From Patescibacteria group bacterium (lineage in GTDB: Bacteria > Patescibacteriota > Minisyncoccia > Phycocordibacterales > Phycocordibacteraceae), in the NCBI GenBank assembly GCA_019752595.1, contig JAIELV010000001.1, positions 726,240-790,239 on the forward strand: a stretch of 64,000 nt of DNA, written 5' to 3'. Position 1 is the stretch's first letter. Every line of letters starts with the position of its first letter. Of this stretch, positions 18,187-59,420 are shown piece after piece. Under the pieces are notes generated by a model. The model searched no databases. It was not told where the DNA came from and saw only the letters and a list, made by a program, of their open reading frames with translations. The translations under genes and the position numbers were made by a program.

Positions 18187-18236
18187 TCAGCTTTTAAGGA
18201 ATAGCGTTTAGGGTTTAGGGAAGATACAATCACAAA

Positions 18237-23106: not shown

Positions 23107-23153
23107 GGCGCCCCTAAAACCTGCAACCTAAAACCTAACCCCTGCGCCGTTGC

Positions 23154-36640: not shown

Positions 36641-37138
36641 GTGGCAATTACAAAAGCAAAAAAAGTAACACTGCTTGCAAACATTACCGAGGCTCTCGCA
36701 AAGACTGTCTCGGGTGTGTTTGTTAGTTTCTCTGGTATTACGGTTGCGGAAGTGAACCAGCTTCGCAACGCGCTCAGAGCGGAAGGTGTGAAATACACTG
36801 TCGTCAAAAAGACACTCCTTAAGAAAGCACTCACCGAAAAAGGCGTTTCAGGCGACATGCCCGAACTTCCTGGTGAAATTGCATTCGTCTACCTCAAGGA
36901 AGGCGAGGATATCACCGCACCAGCGCGTGGGATCCACGGATTTATCAAGAAACTCCAGGGCAAAATTGCTCTCGTTGGAGGTCTTCTTGAAGGCAAATAC
37001 CTCTCGGAAGGGGAGGCAAAAGGAATCGCAACGATTCCGCCGATTCCAGTACTCCGCGGCATGTTTGCAAACATCATCAATTCGCCGATTCAGCGTTTGG
37101 CCATCGGTTTGAATGAAGTAGCTAAAGTTAAAAATTAA
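36641..37138 (+). CDS. rplJ: 50S ribosomal protein L10 (GTG start)
   Basis: AITKAKKVTLLANITEALAKTVSGVFVSFSGITVAEVNQLR. Confidence 0.9.
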   Translation: MAITKAKKVTLLANITEALAKTVSGVFVSFSGITVAEVNQLRNALRAEGVKYTVVKKTLLKKALTEKGVSGDMPELPGEIAFVYLKEGEDITAPARGIHGFIKKLQGKIALVGGLLEGKYLSEGEAKGIATIPPIPVLRGMFANIINSPIQRLAIGLNEVAKVKN

Positions 37139-37164
37139 GATAAAGGGTTTAGGTACTAGCTTCT

Positions 37165-37190
37165 AGCTTTTAAAGCTAACCCCTAGCACC
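37165..37190. repeat. AGCTTTTAAAGCT-containing motif, copy X (rplJ-rplL spacer)
   Basis: TAGCTTTTAAAGCTAACCCCTAGCACC; compare 43655-43680 and 40602-40678. Confidence 0.55.
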
Positions 37191-37210
37191 TATCACCTAA
37201 AAACTAAATT

Positions 37211-39360: not shown

Positions 39361-39395
39361 TATTTAGGTTTTAGCTGACAGGTTTCAGCTTTCAG

Positions 39396-39431
39396 GAAAC
39401 GCCACAGGCAAAAGCCGTGGCGTTTTTTGTT
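39396..39431 (+). terminator. rho-independent terminator
   Basis: AACGCCAC...GTGGCGTT + TTTTTT. Confidence 0.65.
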
Positions 39432-39777: not shown

Positions 39778-40401
39778 CAGTTGGGTGGGGGAGGAATACT
39801 ATTCGAATATAAAAATATCTTTATATGATTGAACCAAAATTTCTCACGATGTCCGACATAGGAACCAAGGTGGCAGGATGGCCTGCTTCAAAAATCGGAG
39901 ATGCGAAGAACAGATTTCTTTCGAGAGCCACCCGCGTCGAAGCTACAGGTGCGCCTACGTCAGATACGCTTCGCGGTCTACGAAGTCTCGTGCAAGCTCT
40001 TGCAGAACTTGAAGGTGACCAGCAGCGTCGCGAAGCAGTTGCTGCAAAGGAGAGAGAATCGCGTGCAGCATAATTTTTTATGGCTACTCATAACGAAGGA
40101 CCGAATACGCCCGAACAGCGCTATGGAAGAGCTCGAGCAGTGTGGGAGAAACATTTTACGGGCACGACCGCGATTCACTACGGGTACAAACAAGTGTCCG
40201 CCGAAGAACAGCTAACAGTTGCTAAGAGGCGCGCTATCGCAGATGTCGCCATGGGAATAATGCAAAGAGCTTTGAGCGGGATGAGATAGGGGAAAAACTG
40301 TGGGAAACGGGCGCCGTAGGCGCCCGTTTTTCTAAAAAAACCTTTAAATAAGCCATTTCTCTTTTTAGACCAAAAAAGGGCTGAAAAGAGCCATTGTTTT
40401 C

Positions 40402-40430
40402 TTGACAGGGGCCTTCAAAAGGTATATCTT
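40402..40430 (+). promoter_or_regulatory. candidate promoter TTGACA-17-TATCTT driving a ~90-nt terminated transcript
   Basis: read directly; terminator at 40505-40528. Confidence 0.35.
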
Positions 40431-40436
40431 ACTGAA

Positions 40437-40528
40437 TAGGTTATATGAGTACTAACACGAAAGACGCAATGCGGTCATAGCGAAACATTTACGTGTTTCG
40501 TTTGAAGCCGCCGACAGCGGCTTTTTTG
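40437..40528 (+). ncRNA. candidate small RNA (~90 nt) upstream of the 23S rRNA gene
   Basis: promoter, internal hairpin CGAAACA-tttacg-TGTTTCG, terminator GCCGC-cgaca-GCGGC + TTTTTT. Confidence 0.3.
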
Positions 40529-40601
40529 TTCTCTTGTAAAACCAGTTCGTTGACAATTTAAGACATCATATAGAGAACATCGAGCATAAACAGAAAATAA
40601 T

Positions 40602-40678
40602 TAGGTGTTAGTGATTAGGGGTTAGGTTCTAGTTTGAAAAAGCTAAACTCTAAAACCTGAAAGCTAAAACCTGATTAA
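40602..40678. repeat. AGGTGTTAG...AAAGCTAAA motif, copy Z, immediately 5' of the 23S rRNA start
   Basis: AGGTGTTAGTGATTAGGGGTTAGGTTCTAG...AAAGCTAAACTCTAAAACCTGAAAGCTAAAACCTG; similar to 43627-43690. Confidence 0.5.
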
Positions 40679-42735
40679 GAACGTTATGTGGTTTTCAAGC
40701 TTCCTCGCGGAAGTTTGAAGGGTGTATGGTGGATGCCTTGACTTTAAAGAGCGATGAAGGACGCAGCACGTCTGCGAAAAGTTTCGGGGAGCTGACGAGC
40801 AAGCTTCGATCCGAAAATATCCGAATGGGGAAACCCCTCGTACTCCGTACGAGATCTGTGGAGTGTTCTGCAGATGCGCACCTCGGGAAGTGAAACATCT
40901 CAGTACCGAGAGGAAAAGAAACCAACAGTACATCTCGGTCTCTGCACAAATTTATTTTGTACAGGGACCGGGATTCTGGAATTTCCCTAGTAGCGGCGAG
41001 CGAAAAGGAATCAGCCCAAACCGTATCAGCAATGGTGCGGGGTTGTAAGGCGATGGCGTTCCAATTTATTGGAAGAGAAGTTATCAAAAATATTGGTAGA
41101 AGAATCTGCTGGGAAGCAGAACCCTAGTGGGTAATAGTCCCGTATTCGAAATCAATATTTCTTCTTTGCCATCGATCTTGAGTAATCCGAGACACGAATA
41201 GCTTGGATGAATCCGCCGGAACTAACCGGCAAGGCTAAATATCTTTAAAGATCGATAGTGAACCAGTACCGTGAGGGAAAGGTGAAAAGCAGCCCGGAAG
41301 GGCAGTGAAATAGTTCTGAAACCATACATCTACAAAGAGTCGAAGAGGTCGCAAGACCTCGACGGCGTGCCTATTGAAGAATGAGCCGGCGAGTTTACGC
41401 ACACGGCAGGCTAAGGGGCGATCCCCCGGAGCCGTAGGGAAACCGAGTGTGAATAGCGCGTTAGTCGCGTGCGTAAGACCCGAAGCCAGGTGAGCTTGTC
41501 ATGAGCAGGGTGAACCACTCCGAAAGGAGTGGGGAGGCCCGAACCCGTTGGTCGTACAACGCCTTGGGATGACTTGTGACAAGGAGTGAAAAGCTTATCG
41601 AACCTGGTAATAGCTGGTTCTCTCCGAAATAGCTTTTGGGCTAGCGTCTGACGTTCCCTCTGGGGGTAGAGCACTGGAAGGGTCAAATAGGGAGCAATCT
41701 CGTTGACCCTATCAAACTCCGAATACCAGAGATTAAAAGTCAGGCAGTTAGACTACGGGCGCTAAGGTCCGTTAGTCGAGAAGGGAAGAGCCTAGATCTC
41801 AAGTTAAGGTCCCTAAATATGCGCTAAGTGCATCACAAGGAAGTTGAAGTTCTATGACAGTGAGGATGTTGGCTTAGAAGCAGCCACCATTTAAAGAAAG
41901 CGTAACAGCTCACTCATCGAGAACTTCTGCGCCGAAGATAATCGGGGCTAAGCGCGTTACCGAAACTGAGGAATTACAGAAGATCCGTCTTCTGTATTTG
42001 GTAGGAGAGCGTTCCAAACCGCAATGAAGGATAAGGGGTGACCCATTCTGGAGCGTTTGGAAGTGAGAATGCCGGCACAAGTAACCACAATGTGGGTGAG
42101 AACCCCACACGCCGAAAGAATGAGGTTTCCTTCGCACTGATGATCAGCGAAGGGTTAGTCGGGCCTAAGGGAATGGCGAAAGCCGCACCCGATGGACACA
42201 CGGTTAATATTCCGTGACTTAGTATGTATGCGATGGAGAGACGGAGTGCTGTATCTACTGCCCGTTACTGGATTTGGGTTCAATGCATGAGGATGTGACT
42301 TCAGGAAAATCCGGGTCACGCCAGTCCGAGTGTAGTGGAAATGTCCTGGTTCGCCAGGATAAATAGTAGAGAGCGCGCTTCCCAGAAAATCTTCTAAGCT
42401 TCAGTACATACAATCCGTACCGCAAACCGACACAGGTATTCAGGTCGAGTAGACCAAGGCGAACGAGTGAGAGGTCCTCAAGGAACTCGGCAAAATAGCG
42501 GCCGTAACTTTGGAATAAGGCCTGCCCTCTCTTAATTGAGGGGGCCGCAGCGAAAGATTCCCAACCGACTGTTTATCAAAAACACAGCTCCCTGCGAACT
42601 CGTAAGAGGATGTATAGGGGGTGACACCTGACCAATGCCAGAAGGTCAACTATGGGTGGTGCGTGGTAGCAATACTATGTGCTGACCTATATAAGCCCTG
42701 GTCAATGTCGGCGATAACTATAATCGTCCTAAGGT

Positions 42736-42955
42736 TTCCGTCTTGAGTAATCGAGGCGGGAAGGATTGGGACGATTGTAGAGATAAACAGAAATAAAAAT
42801 ACACTAAGTTACCTTACATGCAGTAATGCATGCGTAATCCAATCATGACCAACAAGAGACCAAATGTCATGCTCCTTCAATTTTGCAAAAGGTTTATCCT
42901 GAGCGAAGTCGAAGGATGAAGATAGAGTCCTTCGTACAATAAATAGGAATCGAAG
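42736..42955 (+). other. ~220-nt insertion in 23S between CCUAAGGU and AGCGUAAUUCC (E. coli ~1931; helix 69-71 region); intron or intervening sequence
   Basis: exon junction reconstructs the universally conserved CCUAAGGU|AGCGAAAUUCC; insert ends in G. Confidence 0.65.
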
Positions 42956-43583
42956 AGCGTAATTCCTTGTCTGGTAAGTTCAGACGTGCACGAATGGTGT
43001 AACGAGTTGGGAACTGTCTCGAGGACTTGCTCGGTGAAAATACAGTACCGGTGAAGATGCCGGTTACTCATAGTTAGACGAAAAGACCCCAGAAGCTTTA
43101 CTGTAGCTTCGTATTGGGATTATGATTCATCTGCGTAGAATAGATGGGAGAGGTTGAAGCATGGGTTTTGGCTCATGTGGACTCGTCAGTGCAATACCAT
43201 CCTTATGCGTCGTAATTTCTAACCTCTGGAAAACACCAGGGAGACAGTGCGTGGTAGGCAGTTTGAGTGGGGCGCTCTCCTCCAAAAAAGTAACGGAGGA
43301 GTCTACAAAGGTCAGCTAGGCGCGAATGGAAACCGTGCCGGTCGTGTAATGGCACAAGCTGGCTTAACTGCGAGACGTGAATGTCGAGCAGACACGAAAG
43401 TGGAGCATAGTGAACCGCTGATTCGCATTAGATGCGGTCAAAGATTATCTGATAAAAGTTACTCTGGGGATAACAGGCTAGTTCCGCCTAAGCGTCCATA
43501 GCGACGGCGGAGTTCGGCACCTCGATGTCGGCTCACCACATCCCGGAGCTGGAGAAGGTTCCAAGGGTATGGCTGTTCGCCAT

Positions 43584-43615
<32 letters not shown>

Positions 43616-44037
43616 TTAATTAGAGAAGGTGTTAGGGACTAGGTGCCAGGTGTTAGCTTTAAAGCTAAAACCTAGTACCTGGGAGCTAGAACCTTGTCTG
43701 TTAAGCAGTCTGAACCCGATTGAGAGAGAAAGTTGTTCAAATGAATATCAGGTTTTTTCGTCACAAAAAGAAACAGAACCAATCATCACGGCGGCGCATG
43801 TACGAAATTACATGACGCACCGATCAACATATATCGGGAAAATCCTGCAAAGGACAATTCCGAGGGAAGCACGGCAGCTTGCTAACGCAACTGCACTTGG
43901 ATTTTCTAGAACGGTTTACCGTTAAGAAAATCTCGGCGCCCGTAGAGACTGCACGTTGATTACCCGAAACGATTTGTAAAAGAATTGGAGGGTAAAGATA
44001 CAGTCCGATACTTTCGGTAACGAAAGCAAACACATTG
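43616..44037 (+). other. ~422-nt insertion in 23S between GGGUUCAGACCGU and CGUGAGACAGGUUGGUC (E. coli ~2590-2593, canonical group I intron site); intron or intervening sequence
   Basis: exon junction reconstructs conserved AGAACGU|CGUGAGACAG; insert ends in G; contains a 98-aa ORF without recognisable homing-endonuclease motifs. Confidence 0.65.
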
Positions 44038-44180
44038 CGTGAGACAGGTTGGTCTCCTATCTACTATGAGCGTTGATATTTGAGGAGAGTCGTCCTTAGT
44101 ACGAGAGGACCGGGATGAACTGACCTCTGGTCTACCTGCTGTTCCGCCAGGAGCATTGCAGGGTAGCTATGTCGGGAAGA

Positions 44181-44211
<31 letters not shown>

Positions 44212-44437
44212 TCCCTCCAAGATTAGATATCGTTAAGGCCCGTGAGAGATGATCACGTTGATAGGCTCAAGGTGTACATGTAGCAATACATTCAGCCGAA
44301 GAGTACTAATTCGCCGATTTTTGCGGGGAAGCATGAAAATCCATAACCCTGTTTTGTGCTCGATGTTCTCTATGTGAATGAAGTCTTAAATTGAAATAAT
44401 AAAATCTTCGTATTGAATGTTTTGTTTTGGTGGTTTG

Positions 44438-44531
44438 TCAGTGGGGCCACACCCGTTCTCATTCCGAACACGGCAGTTAAGCCCACCAGAGCCGATGGTA
44501 CTCGTAAGGGGAGAGTAGGCGACCGCCAGAA
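44438..44531 (+). rRNA. rrf: 5S ribosomal RNA
   Basis: CCGAACACGGCAGTTAAGC...GATGGTACTCG...GAGAGTAGG core. Confidence 0.85.
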
Positions 44532-44547
44532 CAAAGTATTCAATACA

Positions 44548-44582
44548 AAAACACCGACCAGAAATGGTTGGTGTTTTTGTAT
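44548..44582 (+). terminator. rho-independent terminator after 5S
   Basis: ACACCGACC-agaaat-GGTTGGTGT + TTTTGT. Confidence 0.65.
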
Positions 44583-44659
44583 TGCTCTTGTTCTGGCGGC
44601 GGCCACTCCCGAGGACGGGAGAGTATCAGTTTCGAAAGTCCGAAACTGATACCGTCATC

Positions 44660-44708
44660 GTTCGCTCGGCAATCAGAAAGCGAGCTTTCCATTGCCCTCG
44701 CTCACTCG
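44660..44708. repeat. terminator-proximal stem-loop element, diverged copy D
   Basis: TTCGCTCGGCAATCAGAAAGC-gag-CTTTCCATTGCCCTCGCTCACTCG, preceded by perfect 12-bp hairpin 44623-44652. Confidence 0.45.
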
Positions 44709-44794
44709 ATGGTAGTCTTCTTCAGAACAAGCATCTGAAATGCTCGGTGTTAGGTGGCCGTCTTATAACGCGGGATTTTTGATATCATGCGCGT

Positions 44795-45532
44795 ATGCCG
44801 TGGGGAATGAAGCGCCAACTGTTCTATGCACTCGTCGTGCTCGGTGTTATCGCTGTCGTTTTGATTGTGTTGGGTTTTGTATTTTTCTATAAAGCACCGA
44901 CCTGTATTGACGGCAAGATGAATCAGAATGAAGAAGGTGTCGATTGTGGTGGTGTGTGCGTCAAAGTCTGTGAAGCTCCCGCAATTTCCGCAGTGTGGTC
45001 GCGATCGGTGAAAGTTGCGAACGGTGTCTATCACGCGGTCGCAATGATCAGGAACCCTTCGACGAACGCAGGCACTACCAATCTTCCGTATACGTTTTAT
45101 ATGTATGATGCCGATAATATTTTAGTTGCACAGAGAAGCGGCACCATGGTTCTCGATCCAGGGGAAACGGTTCCGCTCTTGGAGACAAATATTGTGACTC
45201 GCGAGCGTGCACCCACGAAAACATTTATAGAATTCGGCCAGGCTGTCTGGCGTGAAAAGTCCCGTCCACAGAGCCCTGTGGTTATTGACTCTGAAGTTTT
45301 GGATAGTGAAAATCTGCGCCTCACCGCACGCGTTTCAAACACAACGCCAAAATCGGTGCCGAAAGTGACAGTAACGGCACTTCTCTATGGGAAAGATGAA
45401 GTCTTAGTCGCAGCCTCGCAAACGGTACTTTCGGAAATTCCAGCACGTGGCGACGTGGAAGCGGTGTTTACGTGGCAAGAAAATTTCCCTGAAGAAATCG
45501 TGCGCACGGTTGTAACTGCACGCACCCGCTAA
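44795..45532 (+). CDS. membrane-anchored hypothetical protein upstream of ftsW/rodA
   Basis: N-terminal TM LFYALVVLGVIAVVLIVLGFVFF, Cys-rich segment, beta-rich ectodomain. Confidence 0.45.
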   Translation: MPWGMKRQLFYALVVLGVIAVVLIVLGFVFFYKAPTCIDGKMNQNEEGVDCGGVCVKVCEAPAISAVWSRSVKVANGVYHAVAMIRNPSTNAGTTNLPYTFYMYDADNILVAQRSGTMVLDPGETVPLLETNIVTRERAPTKTFIEFGQAVWREKSRPQSPVVIDSEVLDSENLRLTARVSNTTPKSVPKVTVTALLYGKDEVLVAASQTVLSEIPARGDVEAVFTWQENFPEEIVRTVVTARTR

Positions 45533-57713: not shown

Positions 57714-57966
57714 GCCCATAGCGATCTTTGACAACTAAATAACCAATCTATCTGTAGCAATCAGATAGGTTGTGTACCACAAGTACAATTAAACCAAGTG
57801 TACTCATTAGACAGCTTAGGAGCGGTCTGATGAGTTAAGTGTTAAGTAACCAGTACCTTCCGGAGATGTAAAAATTTTCGTTAGGGAAAGTAACCAAGAG
57901 CTTTTGTTTTTCTTCTGTTCCGTCTGTTGATTCATGCATCTCAATTGAATGCATGAATCTTTACTG

Positions 57967-59420
57967 AGAGTTTGATCCTAGCTCAGGGTGAATGCTGGCG
58001 GCGTGGATAAGGCATGCAAGTCGAGTGGGTTTAGACCCACGGCAGACGAGGTAGTAACACGTAGGAACGTACCCCGAAGTCTGGGATATTCTGTCGAAAG
58101 ACAGCGCAATACCAGATGGTCTCTAAGGAGTAAAGATTTATCGCTTCGGGAGCGGCCTGCGCAATATCAGCTAGTTGGTGAGGTAATGGCTCACCAAGGC
58201 TATGACGTTTAGGGGAGCTGAGAGGCTGACCCCCACCGATGGAACTGAGATACGGTCCTTACTCCTACGGGAGGCCGCAGTCGAGAATCTTCCGCAATGG
58301 ACGAAAGTCTGACGGAGCGACGCCGCGTGGTGGATGAAGTCCCTCTGGGACGTAAACACCTTTTATAGGGGATGAAGTTTTGACAGTACCCTAAGAATAA
58401 GGGGCTCCTAACTCTGTGCCAGCAGGAGCGGTAATACAGAGGCCCCAAGCATTACCCGGAATCACTGGGCGTAAAGGGTGCGTAGGTGGCGTGATTAGTC
58501 CTTCTTTAAATTCTCCGGGCTCAACCCGGAGACTCGGAGGGAAACGGTCATGCTGGAGGGTGTACGAGGTGTGTAGAACTCTAGGTGTAGGGGTGAAATC
58601 CGTTGATATCTAGGGGAATACCGAATGCGAAGGCAGCACACTGGGACATTCCTGACACTGAGGCACGAAAGCGTGGGTAGCGAAAAGGATTAGATACCCT
58701 TGTAGTCCACGCCCTAAACTATGTTCTCTGGCTTTGAGGAGTATCGACCCTCTTCGAGGCGAAGCTAACGCGTTAAGAGAACCGCCTGGGTAGTACGATC
58801 GCAAGATTAAAACTCAAAGGAATAGACGGGAACTCGCACAAGTAGTGGATCATGTGGCTTAATTCGTAGGTAAGCGAAGAACCTTACCAAGACTTGAAAC
58901 CTAGCTGCACGGCCTCCGAAAGGAGATCAGCCTTCGAGGGTGCTAGGCAGGTGGTGCATGGTCGTCGTCAGTTCGTGGCTTGAGCTGTTCCCTTAAGTGG
59001 GGAAACGAACGCAACCCCCGTTGCCTGTTTTAAATGTCAGGCGAGACTGCTCCCTCACGGGAGAGGAAGGTGGGGATGACGCCAGATCAGCATGCCCCTC
59101 TGATGTCTTGGGCTGCACACGTGATACAATGGCAACAACAAAGAGACGCAAGACGGTAACGTGGAGCAAATCTCAAAATGTTGCCTCAGTACGGATTGAG
59201 GTCTGCAACCCGACCTCATGAAGCTGGAATTACTAGTAATCGTGGGTCAGCCATACCACGGTGAATACGTTCTCGAGTTTTGTACTCACCGCCCATCAAC
59301 TCAAGGGAGCCGGGAATACCCGACGCTCGCGTTTATCGCGGTCCACGGTAAGTTCGGTGACAGGGAGTAAGTTGTAACAAGGCACGGGTAGCGGAAGCTG
59401 CTCGTGGAACAATTCCATGA
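57967..59420 (+). rRNA. rrs: 16S ribosomal RNA (~1454 nt), not adjacent to 23S; 3' tail CAAUUCC instead of CACCUCC
   Basis: AGAGTTTGATCCTAGCTCAG 5' end; conserved 515/800/1400 regions; helix 45 GGAA loop; processing stem CTGTTCCGTCTGTT (57917) / AACAGACGGAACAG (59534). Confidence 0.9.

Follow-up and report, generated by a model that had tools for sequence, protein, structure and literature searches.

A very probable group I intron without an endonuclease gene in helix 93 of a Patescibacteria 23S rRNA gene

Introduction

The 23S rRNA gene of the Patescibacteria genome analysed here is interrupted, in the part that encodes the peptidyl-transferase region, by 422 nt that have no counterpart in the E. 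coli gene. What kind of element is this: a group I intron that is spliced out of the precursor, a segment cut out without ligation, a stretch that stays in the mature rRNA, or an error of assembly? We addressed this question in a stretch of 64,000 nt (the window), for which a sequence-only reading had proposed a group I intron at the L2593-type site. Group I introns in CPR 23S genes cluster around the peptidyl-transferase centre, at positions 1917, 1931, 1952, 2593, 2604 and 2657 (Tsurumaki et al, 2024; PMC11270868). For CPR 23S genes, that survey also counts 222 group I introns without an ORF, and it describes near-identical RNA in the ORF-less and the LAGLIDADG-bearing forms. ORF-less L2593 group I introns in Patescibacteria are already published, and the insert studied here adds one more case.

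Results

A precise interruption after U2593

The sole 23S gene in the window is a bacterial LSU rRNA at 40706-44327 on the forward strand (Rfam, 2328 bits), about 700 nt longer than the Rfam model; the same search placed a 5S gene at 44426-44531 (+) and a 16S gene at 57960-59419 (+). The rRNA exons share 78-87% identity with those of CPR loci and 67% with E. coli. For the placement of the insert, 43616-44037 was taken out of the window 23S beforehand and the remainder was aligned with E. coli rrlH (L001:2060-4963) as the reference. The flanks, GGGTTCAGACCGT and CGTGAGACAGGTTGGTC, then align with E. coli 2581-2610 without a gap, and the break falls between U2593 and C2594, in helix 93 of domain V, within the peptidyl-transferase region. 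Both ends are fixed, as a shift by one base would change one of two conserved positions, U2593 or C2594. The 5' exon ends with T43615 and the insert with G44037, so that a U precedes the insert and a G closes it, as in group I introns. The length, site and end bases given by the sequence-only reading are therefore exact.

43616-44037, plus strand: very probable group I intron of 422 nt (from the site, the RF00028 alignment, homology and covariation)
44037, plus strand: terminal guanosine (omega G), from the sequence; most retrieved inserts end in ...ATG, in a scan whose pattern demanded a G before the 3' exon

Several other features of the rRNA region were recorded. The 23S gene carries expansions of 50 nt (40926-40975) and 56 nt (41026-41081) at E. 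coli positions 227 and 277, which may be expansion segments or IVS-type inserts. Inverted repeats surround both the 23S gene (40554-40590 and 44353-44393; 25 nt at 92% and 16 nt at 94%) and the 5S gene (44407-44434 and 44522-44549; 28 nt at 82%), as expected of precursor processing stems, and a 20-bp hairpin 3' of the 5S gene (44541-44584) is probably a terminator. The 16S gene is unlinked from the 23S-5S pair: it follows 13.4 kb downstream, on the same strand, after genes for RodA, a sugar transferase, SecD, SecF and others. ARAGORN found no tRNA genes in the 64-kb window; some Patescibacteria tRNA genes are missed on account of group I introns in the anticodon loop (PMC13011429).

A covarying ribozyme core

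At the gathering thresholds, Rfam reported no family in the insert. A local RF00028 search of 551 nt aligned the full model (1-253) with 43745-44027 at 26.1 bits (E=1.2e-4), as against a gathering score of 50 and just beyond the E-value cut-offs of published CPR surveys (E<=1e-4 or E<1e-4; PMC11270868 and PMC13011429). The sequence-only reading had named a covariance model as a check and the lack of any model match as a refuting outcome; the model aligns end to end, if below threshold. The confidently aligned stretches are GUAGAGACUGCACG, the classical R element (P7/P3'), and AAAGAUACAGUCC, the S element (J8/7-P7'); the R element GUAGAGACUG and the S element AAGAUACAGUCC both fall inside the full-length alignment. 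Since the score is below the 50-bit cut-off, we sought independent evidence.

This came from A1, a MAFFT alignment of 32 inserts together with 14 and 12 nt of flanking exon, made without structural guidance. Helices were read off the window sequence and afterwards projected onto A1. With the named structure, 85.2% of the cells are paired; sliding the 3' partners by 1-3 columns lowers this to 31-48%. Changes on both sides occur in 34 of the 61 pairs, and none of 500 shuffles reached the observed value on any of five measures. Compensatory changes are present in each of P3, P5, P7, P8 and P9; P4 and P6 are near-invariant yet paired. P3 and P7 interlock, forming the pseudoknot that defines the group I core, and P7 itself appears as GACUG/CAGUC, GACUA/UAGUC or GACGA/UCGUC, with two covarying positions. 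The family-invariant columns are all kept in the window intron, and its core helices, guide and terminal G are intact. These results, with the homologous inserts described below, bear out the assignment to group I made from the sequence alone. The core elements are as follows.

43794-43818, plus strand: P2 hairpin, a 9-bp stem with one bulge and the loop CGAAAU (folding)
43822-43828, plus strand: 5' strand of P3, partner 43955-43961 (changes on both sides in 6 of 7 pairs)
43834-43863, plus strand: P4 (43834-39 with 43858-63) around P5 (43843-46 with 43851-54, loop GCAA) (RF00028, A1)
43864-43941, plus strand: P6 (43864-66 with 43939-41) and its two-hairpin extension (~43869-43937) (homology, fold)
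43947-43951, plus strand: 5' strand of P7, GACUG, inside the R element GUAGAGACUG, partner 44001-44005 (100% paired)
43955-43961, plus strand: 3' strand of P3, 3 nt past P7 (sequence, A1)
43962-43993, plus strand: P8 (changes on both sides in 4 of 4 basal pairs)
43994-44005, plus strand: J8/7 and the 3' strand of P7, AAAGAUACAGUC, the S element (RF00028, A1)
44011-44026, plus strand: P9 hairpin with a GUAA tetraloop (99.5% paired; changes on both sides in 5 of 6 pairs)

Single-sequence folding agrees with this structure. The minimum free energy of the intron with short flanks has a z-score of -8.5 relative to shuffles, and the fold recovers the exon-clamp helix described below as well as P2, P4, P5, P6, P8 and P9. 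The hairpin at 43794-43818 is named P2 because it lies directly 3' of the guide. An equivalent 9-bp hairpin, differing in sequence and mostly with a GNRA loop, is present in 30 of the 30 relatives that could be folded; the window loop, CGAAAU, departs from the GNRA tetraloop of the family. A first register of P2 on A1 was abandoned at 22-43% paired cells: the 6-nt loop of the window shifts it by one column, and folds of single sequences resolved this.

Two pairings with the exons

Within the intron there is a single 9/9 complement to the exon junction CCGU-CGUGA, namely UCACGGCGG; a comparable guide arose in 141 of 20000 dinucleotide shuffles of the intron. Its UCACG pairs with the 3' exon at 44038-44042 (P10) and its GCGG with the 5' exon at 43612-43615 (P1), and the sole G.U pair of the guide is G43791.U43615, opposite U(-1). 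Among the 103 same-site inserts listed, the guide is identical in 46 and takes the form ACACGGCGG in about 25 more, so that it is conserved in about 70 of them; guide and exons are invariant in the set on both sides of P1 and P10. A longer complementarity lies closer to the splice site, with 13 nt of the 5' exon and the first 4 nt of the intron facing a strand at 43701-43717.

43603-43619, plus strand: 5' side of the exon clamp, spanning the splice site (13 exon and 4 intron nt), partner 43701-43717 (17 nt, 88% complementary)
43701-43717, plus strand: 3' strand of the exon clamp, UUAAGCAGUCUGAACCC (complementarity, A1)
43718-43785, plus strand: variable peripheral hairpin region between clamp and guide, with the motif UUUUCGUC...AGAACCAAUC (17-173 nt in relatives)
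43786-43794, plus strand: guide UCACG-GCGG, the only 9/9 guide in the intron
44038-44042, plus strand: first 5 nt of the 3' exon, CGUGA, P10 partner of 43786-43790 (guide search)

The clamp covaries with polymorphisms of the exon at A1 columns 7/178, 9/176 and 15-17/167-169: the exon has G or A facing C or U in 12 sequences and C, U or A facing G, A or U in 3, and covariation is seen on the intron side too. Because it covaries with natural exon polymorphisms, the proximal helix is real. It was tried as P1 and rejected. At A1 columns 14/170 (43615/43705), the splice-site U faces A in 27 of the 32 sequences and G in 5, the window included, and the proximal helix offers no P10. For these reasons P1 was reassigned to 43786-43794: on sequence comparison, we read UCACG-GCGG as the canonical P10-P1 guide and regard the proximal helix as a further clamp on the exon, located in an enlarged L1. 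The UUUUCGUC...AGAACCAAUC motif of the region between them is common to several relatives.

Splicing of 43616-44037 would follow the steps that are standard for group I introns. GCGG of the guide would pair with the final exon bases CCGU and set U43615 in a G.U wobble (P1), and an external guanosine bound in P7 (43947-51 with 44001-05) would attack the bond 43615/43616. The terminal G44037 would next occupy the guanosine site, UCACG would keep hold of the 3' exon CGUGA (P10), and exon ligation would restore GACCGU-CGUGAGACAGGUUGGUC (the junction may also be written GACCGU-CGUGAGACAG). The 170 nt from the 5' splice site to the guide would form the enlarged L1 loop. The clamp and guide pairings are mutually exclusive because both use exon bases -4 to -1. 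The clamp strand may present the 5' exon and then retain it after cleavage.

Absence of an endonuclease gene

The sole long ORF of the insert (43629-43925, 98 aa) had been read as free of LAGLIDADG, GIY-YIG and H-N-H motifs, and Pfam agrees, with no significant match (best E=0.057); nor did a 69-aa minus-strand ORF give a significant Pfam match. Both ORFs overlap the structured RNA core. With the LAGLIDADG proteins of relatives as tblastn queries, the only match in the intron was weak (35 aa on the minus strand, E=0.019 against 422 nt), and the window gave none at E<=1e-3. The window intron accordingly contains no recognisable homing-endonuclease ORF of the LAGLIDADG, GIY-YIG, HNH or His-Cys box kinds. 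The earlier wording, "ORF-less or degenerate", holds in its first half, the endonuclease gene being absent, and falls in its second, the core being intact.

Relatives of about 700 nt (L036, L058, L103 and L115) carry a single-motif LAGLIDADG_1 gene between the P6 strands; the two that were tested with Pfam gave E=6e-8 (L103) and E=3e-11 (L058). The window has its two-hairpin P6 extension at this position. The extension is 90% identical to that of the Saccharibacteria inserts L043 and L029, and relative to L043 its second hairpin contains a compensatory change from G-C to U-A.

Relatives at the same site

We scanned one genome per species for a G followed by the 3' exon GCGTGAGACAGKTYGGTC, which returned at least 120 loci. 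Among the matches listed, at least 103 loci hold an insert of 213-1034 nt at exactly L2593, mostly in Patescibacteria (Saccharibacteria, Paceibacterota, Kaiserbacteria, Nomurabacteria and others), with some in Acidimicrobiaceae, Chloroflexota and other groups. Among the inserts listed, the window intron had nhmmer matches to L029 (E=3.6e-21), L043 (E=1.8e-20) and L089 (E=3.5e-14), and the clamp strand occurs together with the motif CACGGCGG in 60 of 104 (window included). The best local match among the retrieved relatives is 90% over 97 nt, in P6-P7; for the 23S exons, identity with the retrieved loci does not exceed 83-87%. The SecD of the window has 100% identity with an NCBI protein of a Patescibacteria group bacterium, and the next relatives by SecD are Kaiserbacteria and Paceibacterota; an exact look-up of RodA gave no match. 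A separate metagenome scan with the 20-mer AAGCAGTCTGAACCCGATTG was discarded: its four loci are chance matches, none of which matches 40000-45000 by blastn or the L2593 exon patterns.

A sister subfamily, which includes L076 (5229-5554), L011, L053, L085 and L121, begins with CAAA... and has its guide, ACACGGCGG, at a distance of about 28 nt from the splice site, which is where guides normally lie. Its clamp is short, GAACCC on the exon GGGUUC, and two hairpins stand between P7 and P3', at the position of P7.1/P7.2. From this structure it follows that CPR L2593 introns have at least two structural forms.

A repeat-built L1 loop

Between the splice site and the clamp strand, most members of the family have 25-30 nt and the window has 88 nt; relatives align with the window intron only from about intron position 80 onwards. 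The additional sequence is a near-perfect hairpin built from degenerate heptamers, with free energies of -40.9 (plus strand) and -28.6 kcal/mol (minus strand), and two further hairpins of this kind occur in the window.

43620-43700, plus strand: 81-nt hairpin of TAGGNNN-type heptamers, missing from most relatives (repeat search, folding)
40598-40678, plus strand: second heptamer hairpin, within the pre-23S leader, 3' of the processing stem (40554-40590) and 5' of the start of the mature rRNA (40706)
37135-37210, minus strand: third heptamer hairpin, intergenic

The likeness of the 5' part of the insert to 40602-40678, already noticed from the sequence alone, amounts to 76-79% identity over 34-37 nt ungapped. 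The leader and intron hairpins are in the same orientation, and the three hairpins have a mean column identity of 78% in a three-way alignment and share a centre of the form AGCTT-(0-2 nt)-(T/A)AAAGCTA. Against an expectation of 0.73, the window contains 13 occurrences of the heptamer motif. One-armed arrays lie at 15229-15263, 18202-18222, 23110-23144 and 39365-39399; most arrays are intergenic, and that at 15229-15263 is inside a long ORF (12248-15739). The hairpin of the intron is a dispersed element, located in the expanded L1 outside the ribozyme core.

Several relatives with a long L1 likewise have hairpins there, made from other short tandem repeats (among them L106, L004, L064, L019, L009 and L029). 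L106, from a Nomurabacteria MAG, has TAGG heptamers, and L004 (Parcubacteria) and L064 (Saccharibacteria) share TACGAAT units. L078 and L057 are also among the relatives with repeat-built L1 hairpins. Copies of the L1 repeats elsewhere in the relatives' short loci were mostly not found, with clear matches only in L078 (an 8-kb locus), so a genome-wide repeat origin is shown for the window alone. L127, with a SecD 89% identical to that of the window, is syntenic only downstream of the rRNA, on a contig without 23S, so no hairpin-less allele could be shown there.

A further intron-like insert at L1931

The same 23S gene contains a 220-nt insert (42736-42955) exactly after E. coli U1931 (L1931), where again U ends the exon and G ends the insert. 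RF00028 aligns over the full length of the model at 19.3 bits (E=0.01). The layout is that of the L2593 intron: a 13-bp exon clamp joins 42718-42730 to 42768-42780, AGUUACCUUA at 42807-42816 is a candidate guide with a GUAA-capped hairpin directly 3' of it, and GAAGAUAGAGUCC makes up the S element. Similar inserts occur in L089, L021, L068 and L074. By these features the insert is intron-like, and we regard it as a candidate second small group I intron.

Discussion

We conclude, with high confidence, that 43616-44037 is a group I intron with an intact ribozyme and no endonuclease gene, inserted in helix 93 of a Patescibacteria 23S rRNA. Other fates for the insert deserve weighing against this. 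It might derive from a group I intron that has ceased to splice and is kept in the mature 23S as an expansion or tolerated insertion. An unspliced bacterial 23S group I intron is on record (Everett et al, 1999, in the reference list of PMC11270868), and the window departs from the family in its P2 loop and stays below the RF00028 threshold. Such decay sits poorly with the full retention of the invariant columns, core helices, guide and terminal G. The window has a single 23S gene, moreover, and 422 extra nt in helix 93 at the peptidyl-transferase centre would hardly be compatible with function. We consider a retained insertion improbable. Removal by RNase III or another RNase without ligation, leaving a fragmented 23S, would make the insert an intervening sequence (IVS). 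Bacterial 23S IVSs exist, short non-intron inserts are common in CPR 23S according to PMC11270868, and the long hairpins of the insert could serve as RNase III substrates. The IVSs described there (23IS2/23IS4) replace hairpin tips, however, and not helix 93. An IVS is marked by an end-to-end stem at a helix tip (H9, H25 or H45); our repeat search gave no stem joining the ends of the insert, which sits in helix 93. Nor would processing without ligation account for a group I core that is conserved and covaries, or for its guide and terminal G; this outcome is very improbable.

That a foreign intron sequence was fused into the rRNA gene during assembly or binning is barely credible, even granted that metagenome-assembled rRNA genes are often mis-assembled (PMC13011429). 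The insert joins its flanks with single-base precision at a classical intron site, the gene's own exons are complementary to its clamp and guide, the L1 hairpin is a repeat of the same genome, and homologous inserts occupy the same site in more than 100 independent assemblies. An intact intron, which we infer to be spliced, remains our reading of the locus.

Its closest counterparts are the CPR L2593 introns of PMC11270868, with which it shares phylum, site and ribozyme class, and it is directly homologous to inserts from Saccharibacteria, Kaiserbacteria, Nomurabacteria and Paceibacterota. The relatives that we retrieved have near-identical RNA outside the ORF in both ORF-less and LAGLIDADG forms, as that survey reports. 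The window intron is near-identical to none of the CPR inserts retrieved, and its own L1 holds the heptamer-repeat hairpin of the host genome. The passages of PMC11270868 that were consulted describe neither the exon clamp and the guide nor L1 hairpins built of repeats.

Cyanobacterial L2593 introns (Synechococcus C9/C1 and Thermosynechococcus; I-CreI-type) are 744-748 nt long, with a full HEG, P7.1/P7.2 of about 65 nt and a short P2 (Haugen et al, 2007; PMC1995217). Like those of chloroplasts, they share with the present family the site after U2593, the group I ribozyme and the single-motif LAGLIDADG of its ORF-bearing members. The window intron differs from the cyanobacterial ones in having no HEG, 3 nt (CAC, 43952-43954) between P7 and P3', and a 170-nt L1. 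It lacks the P7.1/P7.2 of subgroup IA-type L2593 introns and, with only 3 nt between P7 and P3', is not of the cyanobacterial structural type, to which the sister CPR subfamily does belong. Its P1 of 3-4 bp, the family's GNRA-capped P2 immediately after the guide, the short P5, the GNRA-capped P9 and the lack of P5abc and P7.1/7.2 may place it near the compact Azoarcus-type architecture, which has no counterpart to the large L1 module and extended P6 of the window.

The heptamer hairpin has its nearest precedent in the Nostoc tRNA-Leu(UAA) group I intron, whose P6b hairpin consists of heptanucleotide repeats (Costa et al, 2002, cited after PMC3488679). Both are peripheral hairpins of mutually pairing degenerate heptanucleotide repeats that vary in length between relatives. 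The Nostoc hairpin belongs to another phylum, gene, intron subgroup and loop (P6b, as against L1), and the window has the unit TAGGNNN and also carries the hairpin outside the intron. The simplest reading is a tolerated passenger repeat, because both copies in the rRNA operon sit in RNA that is discarded. A bolder alternative, which we hold to be unlikely, is that the L1 module is functional, or else that the short-repeat hairpins represent a new class of expanding or mobile repeat in Patescibacteria. Were the module functional, the 13-nt exon clamp may be a second exon-binding site, and the leader and intron hairpins may be a shared mark for a host RNase or chaperone that joins leader removal to splicing; under the other version, an undescribed repeat class could be settling in disposable RNA.

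For annotation, the 98-aa ORF should not be entered as a gene, and the 23S exons would be 40706-42735, 42956-43615 and 44038-44327, separated by two group I introns, that at L1931 as a candidate. The locus fits an already documented pattern of group I introns that interrupt Patescibacteria rRNA genes near the peptidyl-transferase centre. Intron specialists may note that the subfamily is without the P7.1/P7.2 of other L2593 introns, that the conserved canonical guide sits far downstream of a covarying exon clamp, and that L1 loops of the family have repeatedly been enlarged by genome-specific short tandem repeats; the overall picture is unchanged.
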